Shown piece by piece: positions 12,943-14,196 of a stretch of DNA of 64,000 nucleotides (the stretch's first letter is position 1; each line of letters begins with the position of its first letter). Origin of the DNA: an uncultured bacterium (lineage in GTDB: Bacteria > Omnitrophota > Gorgyraeia > Zapsychrales > Aceulaceae); assembly GCA_937930175.1 (NCBI GenBank), contig CALGLP010000004.1, positions 2,163 to 66,162 of the forward strand, written 5' to 3'. The position numbers were made by a program, and so were the translations under genes. A model generated the notes under the pieces. The model was not told where the DNA came from and did no database searches. It saw only the letters and a program-made list of their open reading frames with translations.

Positions 12943-13065
12943 AATAGATGACGACGCCTCGCTTTATCTTTAAAACTATATAAAGGAAAAAGAAACGTAG
13001 TCAAGTCGAGGCAGAGTTCCTTTGGGAGATGAGGAATACGTTGTTATTTGGAATAAGGAGATTTT

Positions 13066-13083
13066 GGCGCGATAGCCAAGTGG
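13066..13083 (+). pseudogene. Orphan 5' fragment of a tRNA-Cys-like gene (positions 1-18)
   Basis: GGCGCGATAGCCAAGTGG matches 16 of 18 positions of the 5' end of the intact tRNA-Cys at 13363. It is followed by a 69-nt two-hairpin block. Confidence 0.6.
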
Positions 13084-13215
13084 GCCAGCTTTTCTTGAAA
13101 ACAATTAAGGAAGCTGGCATTCCGTTTCCGCTAAAAGTTTGGAGAAACGGAATAAGGTAGGACCCATAGTTCTTTGGAAAAATGTGTTTAAGCGCTCGAA
13201 ACAAGGTTTAGTCTT

Positions 13216-13234
13216 GGTGCGATAGCCAAGTGGT
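13216..13234 (+). pseudogene. Orphan 5' fragment of a tRNA-Cys-like gene (positions 1-19)
   Basis: GGTGCGATAGCCAAGTGGT matches 16 of 19 positions of the 5' end of the intact tRNA-Cys. It is followed by a 70-nt two-hairpin block. Confidence 0.6.
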
Positions 13235-13362
13235 GCCGATGTTTTCGTGAAACAGTAAAAGCATCGGCGCTCAACTTCCTCTAGAAATTTAAGGAATGTT
13301 GAGCGAGGCAGCATCCTTGTTCTTTTGGAGATGTTTGTCGTTCGTTTTAAAAGGTTTTTGCT

Positions 13363-13434
13363 GGCGACGTAGCCAAGTGGTAAGGCAGAGGTCTGCAAAA
13401 CCTTTATTCATCGGTTCGATTCCGATCGTCGCCT
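13363..13434 (+). tRNA. tRNA-Cys (GCA)
   Basis: Manual cloverleaf: acceptor GGCGACG/CGTCGCC, anticodon stem GAGGT/ACCTT with loop CTGCAAA, T arm ATCGG-TTCGATT-CCGAT. Length 72 nt, with no encoded CCA. Confidence 0.9.
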
Positions 13435-13457
13435 TTAGTTTTTAAAACGAACGACAA

Positions 13458-13504
13458 AAGGTCTGCAAAACCTTTATCCGTCGGTTCGATTCCGACTCGC
13501 GCCT
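13458..13504 (+). pseudogene. Orphan 3' portion of a second tRNA-Cys (anticodon arm through acceptor 3' strand)
   Basis: AAGGT-CTGCAAA-ACCTT, TATCC, GTCGG-TTCGATT-CCGAC, TCGCGCC-T. The acceptor strand TCGCGCC is exactly complementary to the orphan 5' fragment GGCGCGA at 13066. Confidence 0.65.
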
Positions 13505-13678
13505 TAAATGTCCTCATAGCTTGTGCGACAAAACGGAGCGTAAGCTATTTGAGCGAACTTACTCCAAGCGATAGCGAGGAGTAAACGATAATCTATTTGT
13601 CTGAATTGACTCCGATGATTTCCGGAGCAAGTGATTTTAAGTGATTCCGTTAAAAGCGGAGTTCAGTATTCTTTGGGC

Positions 13679-13696
13679 GGGCAAGTGGTGGAATGG
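13679..13696 (+). pseudogene. Orphan 5' fragment of tRNA-Leu (positions 1-18)
   Basis: GGGCAAGTGGTGGAATGG is identical to the first 18 nt of the intact tRNA-Leu, which starts exactly 150 nt downstream. Confidence 0.65.
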
Positions 13697-13828
13697 TCCG
13701 ACTTCGTTCAAAAATATTCATGTTTGAACTACGTTGGACACATGGCTTTGGTGGCGCAGCGTGGCGAAGCTAAGCGCATACGTAATTTGGCAAAGACGGG
13801 CGAAAGCCCGGCGAAGTTTTACGAAGAC

Positions 13829-13911
13829 GGGCAAGTGGTGGAATGGCATACACGCAGGACTTAAAATCCTGTGGCTGAAAGGCTGTGAGGGTTCGACTCC
13901 CTCCTTGCCCA
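13829..13911 (+). tRNA. tRNA-Leu (UAA), type II
   Basis: Acceptor GGGCAAG/CTTGCCC, anticodon stem CAGGA/TCCTG with loop CTTAAAA, a long variable arm, and T arm GAGGG-TTCGACT-CCCTC. Length 83 nt, with no encoded CCA. Confidence 0.9.
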
Positions 13912-14059
13912 TAAAAATTCTGTTAGCAGAATTTTTATGGAGCAATTGAGCAATAGAGAAGCGAGCAATAGATATGCAACGGCCCAATTGCGATCAATTT
14001 TCAATTGTCGATTTTTGAAGTTTTCTTTTTTGATCTTTTAAGCTTAAATTATTTTTTGT

Positions 14060-14072
14060 GAGCTTATAGCTC
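14060..14072 (+). pseudogene. Orphan 5' fragment of tRNA-Val (positions 1-13, one mismatch)
   Basis: GAGCTTATAGCTC versus GGGCTTATAGCTC of the intact tRNA-Val 137 nt downstream. It is followed by a 64-nt two-hairpin block. Confidence 0.55.
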
Positions 14073-14196
14073 TCCGACGTTTTGATTGATAACTAGAAGT
14101 CGGAGTCCCGATCCCTGCAAAGCAGGGCGTCGGGACAGTTTTCAGCTCAAGGCGTAATGGAGATAAAGCTGTATTAGCATAGAACAAAGCAGGTGT

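Follow-up and report, generated by a model that had tools for sequence, protein, structure and literature searches.

Partial tRNA copies with hairpin blocks, and a tRNA-Cys gene nested within a split second one, in a tRNA array of the Omnitrophota

Why should an array of three intact tRNA genes also hold several incomplete copies of their 5' ends, each of which runs into a block of hairpins where the remainder of a tRNA would be expected? The question is raised by the tRNA-Cys, tRNA-Leu and tRNA-Val genes of an uncultured bacterium of the phylum Omnitrophota, in contig CALGLP010000004.1 of GenBank assembly GCA_937930175.1. The whole stretch of 64,000 nucleotides of this contig that was analysed is referred to here as the window; window coordinates are used throughout, the partial copies are named units A and B (Cys), E (Leu) and V (Val), and the loci of relatives carry L numbers. 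The feature is real, reproducible and recurrent across the phylum, and it belongs to no described family. We show below that unit B, together with an orphan tRNA 3' part further downstream, is a second tRNA-Cys gene, Y, which is split around the intact tRNA-Cys gene, X, with a 19-bp helix between the leader and the trailer of X. We read the units as neither att-site scars nor dispersed mobile elements nor foreign insertions, and we put at about even the chance that they are locally generated and selectively kept parts of a tRNA-operon precursor RNA.

A preliminary description of the array, made from its letters alone, had noted copies of each tRNA 5' end at regular distances from the intact gene. 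The repeat finder and the sequence bear out all of its coordinates, with spacings of 150 and 147 nt for Cys, 150 nt for Leu and 137 nt for Val. Every 5' copy breaks in the D-loop or just before it, and a hairpin block comes next. Overall, the stretches of tRNA that are copied cover bases 13-27 in length from the 5' end. ARAGORN calls only three intact tRNA genes in the array, and ARAGORN and Rfam agree with that description on tRNA-Cys, tRNA-Leu and tRNA-Val. Its two-hairpin blocks also stand: folding compared with shuffled sequence is strong for block A (z = -6.2 on the + strand, -4.4 on the - strand), block B (-6.4 and -6.0) and block V (-7.4 and -5.3) and weak for block E (-2.0 and -0.1), the + strand fold being the stabler in 4 of 4 window blocks. 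The resumed tRNA sequence after the blocks (TAAGGTAG, GAGGCAG and GCATAC) was found in each case. The leader motif is present at 13017, 13169 and 13319 as described, although only the third copy fits the degenerate string proposed for it and the others depart from it by 1-nt indels. The array is 100% identical over 2210 nt in two other independent European Nucleotide Archive assemblies (L201, L202) and is therefore no assembly artefact. In an Rfam scan of 12900-14550, units A, B, E and V gave no tRNA match (RF00005) and no match to any known family, RtT included, at E <= 10, which agrees with the earlier impression that no described element has this layout; the orphan 3' part of Y with its trailer scored 21.1 bits against the tRNA family, under the gathering threshold of 29. 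The features of the array are as follows.

13009-13065, + strand: tail of a truncated upstream unit (GAGGCAG, 13009-13015) and a leader with the motif GTTCCTTTGGGAGATG at 13017-13032; sequence inspection.
13066-13083, + strand: unit A, a copy of tRNA-Cys positions 1-18 with the Y-type acceptor strand GGCGCGA; repeat finder (D3), identical in the L001 orthologue.
13084-13152, + strand: two-hairpin block of unit A in the D-loop, with hairpin 1 at 13084-13118 and hairpin 2 at 13120-13152; folding z.
13153-13160, + strand: resumed tRNA-Cys sequence of unit A, TAAGGTAG, comprising the D-loop end, the D-stem 3' strand and positions 26-27; sequence.
13161-13215, + strand: spacer or leader between A and B, with the motif GTTCTTTGGAAAAATG at 13169-13184; identity with L001.
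13216-13234, + strand: unit B, the 5' part (positions 1-20) of the split tRNA-Cys Y, GGTGCGA...; repeat finder, relatives, ARAGORN composite.
13235-13304, + strand: two-hairpin block of unit B (70 nt) in the D-loop of Y; folding z, comparison with L003 and L231.
13305-13311, + strand: GAGGCAG, positions 21-27 of Y; sequence, ARAGORN composite.
13312-13362, + strand: leader of the inner tRNA-Cys, with the motif GTTCTTTTGGAGATG at 13319-13333 and the left arm of an inverted repeat at 13334-13352; repeat finder (I1).
13363-13434, + strand: intact tRNA-Cys(GCA) X, acceptor GGCGACG/CGTCGCC, inside the split Y gene; ARAGORN and Rfam.
13440-13458, + strand: right arm of the 19-nt inverted repeat, the trailer of X; repeat finder (I1), 100% complementary.
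13459-13504, + strand: orphan 3' part of tRNA-Cys Y, 46 nt, with anticodon arm, T arm and the acceptor 3' strand TCGCGCC; repeat finder (D1).
13679-13696, + strand: unit E, a copy of tRNA-Leu positions 1-18; repeat finder (D8), 18/18 identical, 19/19 with base -1.
13697-13781, + strand: hairpin block of unit E (13697-13775) and resumed GCATAC (13776-13781); sequence, folding z.
13829-13911, + strand: intact tRNA-Leu(TAA); ARAGORN and Rfam.
14060-14072, + strand: unit V, a copy of tRNA-Val positions 1-13 (GAGCTTATAGCTC); repeat finder (D13), 12/13 identical.
14073-14136, + strand: two-hairpin block of unit V, hairpins at 14073-14104 and 14105-14136; folding z.
14197-14273, + strand: intact tRNA-Val(GAC); ARAGORN and Rfam.

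The preliminary description had treated the Cys units as fragments of the one intact tRNA-Cys, and its anatomy was incomplete in that it missed the 19-nt inverted repeat, the 3' orphan and the second tRNA-Cys split around the intact one. The orphan acceptor strand TCGCGCC is mismatched to X, is the exact complement of GGCGCGA in unit A, and pairs with GGTGCGA in unit B through one U.G. When 13216-13234, 13305-13311 and 13459-13505 are joined, ARAGORN recognizes a tRNA-Cys(GCA), as it does for the equivalent pieces of L003. Since this acceptor strand matches units A and B and not X, and since the composite is called as a tRNA, unit B is the 5' part of a second tRNA-Cys. The composite Y is complete, with the anticodon GCA, a T73 discriminator and matched acceptor strands. 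Two interruptions break it up in the DNA: its D-loop contains the 70-nt hairpin block, and 147 nt of leader, X and trailer separate position 27 from position 28. For 13216-13505 the fold of lowest energy is nested in just this way, with an outer acceptor stem, two hairpins, a long helix and an inner cloverleaf (z = -7.6), and the L003 equivalent folds alike (z = -7.5).

Relatives were assembled through a search with the ThrRS protein, which gave 80 loci, nearly all titled Candidatus Omnitrophota, with some Planctomycetales and one Patescibacteria group. Within the genus-level group of the window, Y is intact in three species (L001, L002, L231) and split in three (the window, L003, L229). The orphan 3' part matches the 3' half of an intact Y without a difference in two comparisons, that of the window with L001 and that of L003 with L002; the two lineages of Y 3' sequence differ by a compensated T-stem pair, GTCGG/CCGAC in the window and L001 versus ATCGG/CCGAT in L002 and L003. 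The loci that are most informative on the Cys units are these.

L001 (ThrRS 88%): a unit A orthologue, followed by an intact Y.
L002: an X-type 5' fragment with two blocks, ahead of an intact Y.
L003 (about 90-94% identical to L002): Y divided in precisely the same way as that of the window.
L229: third nested case, with the B block fused to one hairpin and the Y 3' piece truncated after TTCGA.
L231: the same B-type block within an X-type fragment, ahead of an intact Y.
L203: leader and X only.
L204 (CoaC protein identical to that of L203): a block after position 7 of X.
L207 and L208: GGCGACG, 4 or 2 hairpins, then GGCGACG-TAGCC... of an apparently intact X; both contigs end in the anticodon stem.

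Does Y, then, still work as a tRNA? On this explanation its two pieces would be held together by the 7-bp acceptor stem and the 19-bp helix and, after excision of X, would serve as a two-piece or re-ligated tRNA or tRNA-like molecule. The completeness of the composite in the window and in L003 favours such a gene, as do the identity of the orphan 3' halves with intact Y, the compensated T-stem pair between lineages, a nested cloverleaf that is the minimum-energy fold and whose helix covaries (see below), and a D-loop block that sits at position 20, where extra D-loop nucleotides are tolerated. On the other side of the balance are the truncated 3' piece of L229, from which no complete tRNA can be rebuilt, and the fact that an intact tRNA-Cys is always present, which makes Y superfluous. 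No separate 3' partner accompanies unit A, E or V. By inspection of the predicted folds, no bulge-helix-bulge motif (3-nt bulge, 4-bp helix, 3-nt bulge) lies at 13311/13312 or 13458/13459, the latter junction forming the base of the continuous 19-bp helix, and we know of no description of bacterial tRNA splicing of this kind. We therefore hold a functional split tRNA-Cys to be very unlikely.

If the units are not genes in their own right, are they simply debris? Slippage or template switching at a highly transcribed and structure-rich locus could leave decaying partial duplicates and palindromes, and on this account what looks like conservation would stem from their youth, from gene conversion with the intact tRNA as donor, or from recombination among strains. 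Unit number and content do vary strongly between species and most relatives have no units at all; in L229 the Y 3' piece is truncated and the B block is down to one hairpin; among close relatives the Leu and Val units occur only in the species of the window; and the 5' fragments are often identical to the adjoining gene, as they would be under gene conversion. Conversion from a tRNA, however, cannot maintain the block of unit A. Between the window and L001, unit A (13066-13161: 5' fragment, block and resumed TAAGGYAG) is 93% identical beside a spacer, the one following it, that is 53% identical, with thrS DNA at 82% and coaC DNA at 75%. The 14 nt of the split Y acceptor strands, for which X contains no donor, show on reading a single change between the window and L003, and it is compatible with a U.G pair. 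The stems, moreover, are invariant or compensated while the loops diverge, and for these reasons we find the neutral account unlikely.

The evidence on the stems comes from several comparisons. The Cys units are homologous: A, B and the upstream unit of L002/L003 align over ~150 nt with a common junction after GGCAG, and the junction of GAGGCAG and leader seen at 13009-13065 is also present in L002, L003 and L231. In the B block the stems of hairpin 1 are identical in the window, L003 and L231, and its loops differ in sequence and, through indels, in length; hairpin 2 is identical in L231 and is altered in L003 with its pairing kept. Paralogous Cys units have different yet complementary stems and share an inner motif, TTCCTCTAAAA...TTAAGGA. 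Over its 19 pairs the leader-trailer helix shows 96.5% pairing in three species (window, L003, L229), with two pairs changed on both sides (C:G to U:A and G:C to A:U) and one changed to U.G; sliding the partner columns lowers pairing to 45-70%, and the shuffle control is weak (48/500, with three sequences). Further afield, a long form of Val unit (L061, two copies in L062, L072 and L077) has four helices with 95% pairing, in which 4 pairs differ at both partners; on three measures the observed value is reached in 0-2 of 500 shuffles, and on a fourth in 105 of 500. One of these helices joins tRNA positions 3-11 to a complementary strand at the end of the unit. A covariance model of this family (R1) finds its five training copies and short forms in L009, L024, L072 and L056 and misses the Val unit of the window, and unit V is therefore not assigned to the family.

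Taken together, these comparisons show conservation or covariation in the hairpin stems, in the helix of leader and trailer and in the flanks derived from tRNA, against drift in loops and plain spacers; the hairpin blocks are one lineage-specific family. The earlier suggestion that the architecture is kept while the sequences vary is borne out in this form, with orthologous blocks conserved far above spacer. A further complementarity, between AAGGTTT(T) in each leader and AAAACCTT of tRNA-Cys, is weak, since from 21 to 407 of 2000 shuffles reach its score.

The preliminary description had also considered that the blocks might be a family of mobile insertions. Stated fully, the blocks, or cassettes of leader, tRNA-Cys and trailer, or both, would be miniature, non-autonomous mobile DNA that inserts in tRNA loops, the arrays would be stacked insertions, and each insertion would carry or duplicate enough tRNA to keep the cell viable. 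Much in the anatomy invites this thought. Blocks are found at many sites in tRNA fragments (after position 7, after position 12, and in the D-loop, anticodon stem, variable region and T-loop); L204 has a block after position 7 of X that L203, with the same CoaC protein, does not; L002 and L003 differ by a D-loop block and an X cassette; and X lies exactly between Y positions 27 and 28, with inverted repeats on both sides. Alignments of the modules made with MAFFT (A2, A3) were structurally incoherent, RNAalifold finding 4 pairs only, and for this reason the modules were searched for with sequence profiles (nhmmer) and not with a covariance model. Over ~1 Mb of Omnitrophota DNA and the 64-kb window the profiles match only inside Cys-Leu-Val tRNA arrays, the module motif is found once in the window, and scans of viral contigs gave nothing beyond the seed motif, with no extended matches.

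Nor do the units look like mobile elements at their ends. We saw no terminal repeats and no consistent target duplications at the units, and neither the many dispersed copies nor the terminal inverted repeats or target-site duplications of miniature inverted-repeat transposable elements (MITEs) or of REP-like elements are in evidence, and no transposase or integrase is among the genes that flank the array. The left arm of the inverted repeat has homologues in ordinary leaders, and these are without a right arm. Stem sequences vary from copy to copy, which speaks against recent copy-and-paste, and orthologous blocks persist across species under constraint. The idea of a mobile family is thus unsupported, and a mobile cassette now seems unlikely to us. 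The stem pair GCTCAAC...GTTGAGC also fits the RYYYAAC / GTTRRRY pattern of integron attC sites; this reading was rejected, as the hairpin is too short, the motif is missing in other copies and no integron features are present.

Integration into tRNA genes is classically recognised by orphan tRNA fragments next to an intact copy, and it might be asked whether the units are attL/attR scars left by phage or island integrases that target these genes. In other loci, the 3' copies that follow tRNA-Val and tRNA-Lys do resemble att repeats. Integrase crossovers, however, typically lie in the anticodon loop, the T-loop or the 3' end of a tRNA, whereas the copies here are mostly 5' ends that break at position 27/28 or inside the D-loop. 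The repeats enclose 50-150 nt of homologous, conserved hairpins and no foreign DNA, an integrase is absent, and the intact gene does not combine the two orphan ends as a hybrid would. The neighbours are core genes, yidC-jag-parA-parB-yicC-gmk-rpoZ-coaC upstream and thrS-infC-rpmI downstream (window 9009-12942 and the L201 gene table), a region typical of the neighbourhood of the chromosome origin. Plain scars had earlier been expected to hold unrelated sequences of random length in related genomes, and the relatives carry homologous blocks instead. The att-scar reading is thus largely refuted, and we regard it as extremely improbable.

How widespread, then, is the phenomenon? The order Cys-Leu-Val-thrS is conserved in relatives, with spacers that vary from 6 to >700 nt. 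When the first 13 nt of each tRNA were sought, with <=2 mismatches and on the same strand, within <=900 nt upstream in 81 Omnitrophota sources, 24 copies were found; the reverse strand yielded 1, and a control region far upstream 3. Such same-strand upstream copies are present at about 15 of 75 Omnitrophota loci. It is clear that a reshuffling of 5' ends, blocks and leaders has taken place between species. The claim that a unit precedes every intact tRNA holds for Cys, Leu and Val of the window but not in general: most relatives have compact arrays, and tRNA-Gln(CTG) of the window (32083-32156) has neither an upstream 5'-fragment unit nor a downstream 3' copy, so that the units are not a property of every tRNA gene in the genome. 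Four independent short-read contigs of related species end in tRNA-Cys at ...GAGGTCTGCA or ...GAGGTCTGC(A) (L205 at 4214, L206 at 992, L207 at 4257 and L208 at 4202), which suggests that the repeated 3' part breaks assemblies at the locus.

Other forms are seen at further loci. In L016 (5634-5860) a pseudo-tRNA-Val stands ahead of the intact tRNA-Val, with hairpin blocks in its D-loop, in the 5' strand of its anticodon stem and in its variable region; its anticodon loop, CTTGACATGG, is intact, and an open reading frame lies between tRNA-Leu and the pseudo-tRNA-Val. There is also a mirror image on the 3' side, in which a run of hairpins follows the last tRNA before thrS and leads to a copy of the T-arm and acceptor 3' end of that tRNA, 10-30 nt ahead of the thrS start. 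The tRNA so copied is Val, or Lys in L041; some of the copies have a block inside the T-loop, and in L038, L047 and L013 CCA is encoded by the distal copy only. These 3'-side copies lie at the following positions.

L013, 1-160: 3'-side copy.
L017, 2890-2995: 3'-side copy.
L018, 5850-5965: 3'-side copy.
L027, 1600-1775: 3'-side copy.
L028, 5220-5360: 3'-side copy.
L038, 5840-5970: 3'-side copy.
L041, 3430-3680: 3'-side copy, of tRNA-Lys.
L047, 5850-5975: 3'-side copy.

Metagenomes were scanned with the unspecific pattern TAGCCAAGYGGN{55,85}RAGGYAG, and almost all of the 80 loci returned are chance matches or normal tRNAs. The only 5'-fragment copy among them is that of L132, a high-GC contig in which a tRNA-Gln-like 5' end is duplicated over 18 nt at a distance of 57 nt upstream of the intact gene (reverse strand, ~1970-2100); it is unrelated to the units, and it indicates that isolated 5'-fragment duplications occur outside the Omnitrophota too.

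What history and what use might account for all this? On the reading to which we give an even chance, that the units were generated locally and have been kept by selection in the precursor RNA of the tRNA operon, comparative anatomy suggests an origin by recurrent partial tandem duplication and unequal recombination within the Cys-Leu-Val array. Such duplications would have copied a leader plus 7-27 nt from the start of the neighbouring tRNA, with a breakpoint that in Cys copies is always after position 27, and on the other side trailers would have been copied along with 3' ends. The copies would have come to bear one to four hairpins of the single family at loop positions of the tRNA fragment, and recombination would then have shuffled 5' ends, blocks and leaders between species. 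The array is probably co-transcribed with its neighbours, rpoZ-coaC upstream and thrS-infC downstream; no sigma-70-like promoter is recognisable on the + strand from 12800 to 14600. In the precursor RNA, the hairpin modules and the long helix may act as processing or stabilizing structures near the cuts made by RNase P and the 3' nuclease, and a role in precursor processing or stability is our best guess for their function.

The mimic 5' strands might also pair with the acceptor 3' strand of the cognate tRNA and so create alternative, outer tRNA-like substrates; where a mimic would interfere, as in the Val units, it may be locked by a complementary strand of its own. When a unit and its tRNA are folded together, the lowest-energy structures for Leu and for unit A plus Y of L001 have the acceptor 3' strand paired with the upstream mimic, and in that for Val the mimic is paired with its own downstream complement. 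Such predicted pairing could mean either that the mimics offer alternative RNase P substrates or that they are a hazard which selection has neutralized.

A number of observations weigh against selective maintenance. Compact arrays without units are the rule among the Omnitrophota relatives, and the modules are therefore dispensable. None of the nearest relatives (L001, L229 and L231) has an orthologue of the window's Leu or Val unit, and these two units may be young and neutral. The differences in presence between the close strains L203 and L204, and L002 and L003, are also compatible with insertion events. In L229 the Y 3' piece has neither the 3' strand of the T-stem nor an acceptor strand, which argues that the split Y is not needed as a tRNA. 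The covariation samples are small, at 3-5 sequences. A strand-neutral count of stem mismatches gives 5 G.T versus 4 A.C, with no clear excess of G.T, so that structure at the level of RNA rather than DNA is unproven. Transcription of the array, its processing sites and any effect on tRNA maturation are, finally, what we infer from the DNA.

A bolder reading would have the Omnitrophota hold an unrecognised tRNA-derived structured RNA, in which hairpin-decorated pieces of tRNA assemble in cis as an outer tRNA-like shell around a functional tRNA; in its strongest form, Y would be a working two-piece or spliced bacterial tRNA, or a device like an RNase P guide that controls maturation of the tRNA it encloses. 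We think this quite unlikely.

Some other features of the array and its surroundings may be recorded here. The Cys-Leu spacer (13505-13678) contains a direct repeat at 13541-13565 and 13589-13613, spaced by 48 nt, both copies of which form a GGAG...CTCC hairpin; the first of these hairpins is recognisably kept in L229 (GGAGCGCAAGC...TTTGCTCC). A perfect 14-bp hairpin, CCATAAAAATTCTG / CAGAATTTTTATGG, occupies 13909-13940, its 5' arm beginning in the last bases of tRNA-Leu, and was not scored as a terminator by a simple scan. Between tRNA-Val and the thrS start (14279-14504) there are several long-range imperfect inverted repeats, among them 14315-14338 / 14439-14462 and 14279-14297 / 14486-14504, which may represent a structured thrS 5' leader. 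The motif TATTGACAAT, which contains TTGACA, occurs shortly upstream of tRNA-Val or its pseudo-units in two distant species (L001, 5760-5790; L062, 5790-5815 and 5905-5930), at inconsistent distances of 7 versus 14 nt from the tRNA start. Elsewhere in the window, a 6S RNA (RF00013, 66 bits) is found at 25232-25390 on the + strand.

To our knowledge, tRNA genes that are disrupted, split or nested have been reported from no organisms other than Archaea and a few eukaryotes, and those of bacteria, group I introns aside, are considered simple. In the Omnitrophota, a bacterial phylum, partial copies of tRNAs that bear a conserved hairpin module have arisen again and again around the tRNA genes, and at least three species hold a tRNA-Cys within a tRNA-Cys. 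Should the modules be active in the precursor RNA, they would represent a novel type of processing or stability element of tRNA operons and a natural test of how RNase P handles alternative acceptor-stem pairings. Even as tolerated debris they would matter in practice, for assemblies break at the locus and tRNA annotation can miss or miscount its genes, and the locus is a living example of tRNA gene fragmentation.

Our literature search found no paper that describes these elements in the Omnitrophota, and they are best placed by comparison with better-known systems. With att-site remnants they share orphan tRNA fragments in direct orientation beside an intact gene, and they differ in the tRNA end that is copied, in the breakpoints, in the absence of foreign DNA or an integrase, and in the conservation of the intervening sequence. 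Repetitive extragenic palindromes (REP) and their mosaics (BIME), like the Rickettsia palindromic elements, are short palindromic hairpins that are dispersed in many copies and in some cases tolerated within genes, and REP hairpins stabilize the ends of upstream mRNAs. The modules described here resemble them as short palindromic hairpin units and, unlike them, were found only in the tRNA array. The t-elements of plant mitochondria are partial tRNA-derived structures that serve as processing signals for RNase P or RNase Z. In one account they are presented as tRNA-like elements that mark transcript ends (PMC1920247). They are organellar and keep a structure like the acceptor and T-arm, whereas the units are 5' quarters of tRNAs with added hairpins.

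The split, multi-intron and permuted tRNA genes of Archaea (Nanoarchaeum, Caldivirga, Thermoproteales) come closer to Y, for they too are broken at non-canonical places in the D-loop and at the junction of the D-stem and anticodon stem, their pieces likewise rebuild a full tRNA, and complementary flanks could join them. A model in one report ties such disruption of tRNA genes to inserted DNA (PMC3293823). Y differs from these genes in being bacterial, in having no evident bulge-helix-bulge, in always being accompanied by an intact isoacceptor, in an "intron" that contains a whole tRNA, and in a 3' piece that has decayed in one of the three species.

The nearest precedent for the units, as an analogue and not a relative, is the set of distal repeats of the E. 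coli tyrT-tyrV operon (RttR or rtT RNA, tpr). Three 178-bp tandem repeats follow the tRNA gene there at spacings of 178 and 178, the last of them overlapping the 3' end of tyrV by 19 nt, and the repeat region is annotated as the small RNA RttR. The tyrT repeats are transcribed with the tRNA and processed into a small RNA. Like them, the units are tandem and periodic (150, 147, 150 and 137 nt), lie within a tRNA operon on the tRNA strand, and reach into a tRNA end, here 13-19 nt of the 5' end. They differ in side and in the end copied, the E. coli repeats being on the 3' side with the tRNA 3' end and the units mostly on the 5' side with the 5' end; in that the E. coli repeats have no hairpin pair in a tRNA loop and no nested gene; in host phylum; and in sequence, the RtT family being among those that gave no match to the units. 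The array is thus a case of tRNA-operon repeats that carry tRNA ends, with a function that we infer, here in a new form in which one tRNA-Cys is nested within another.

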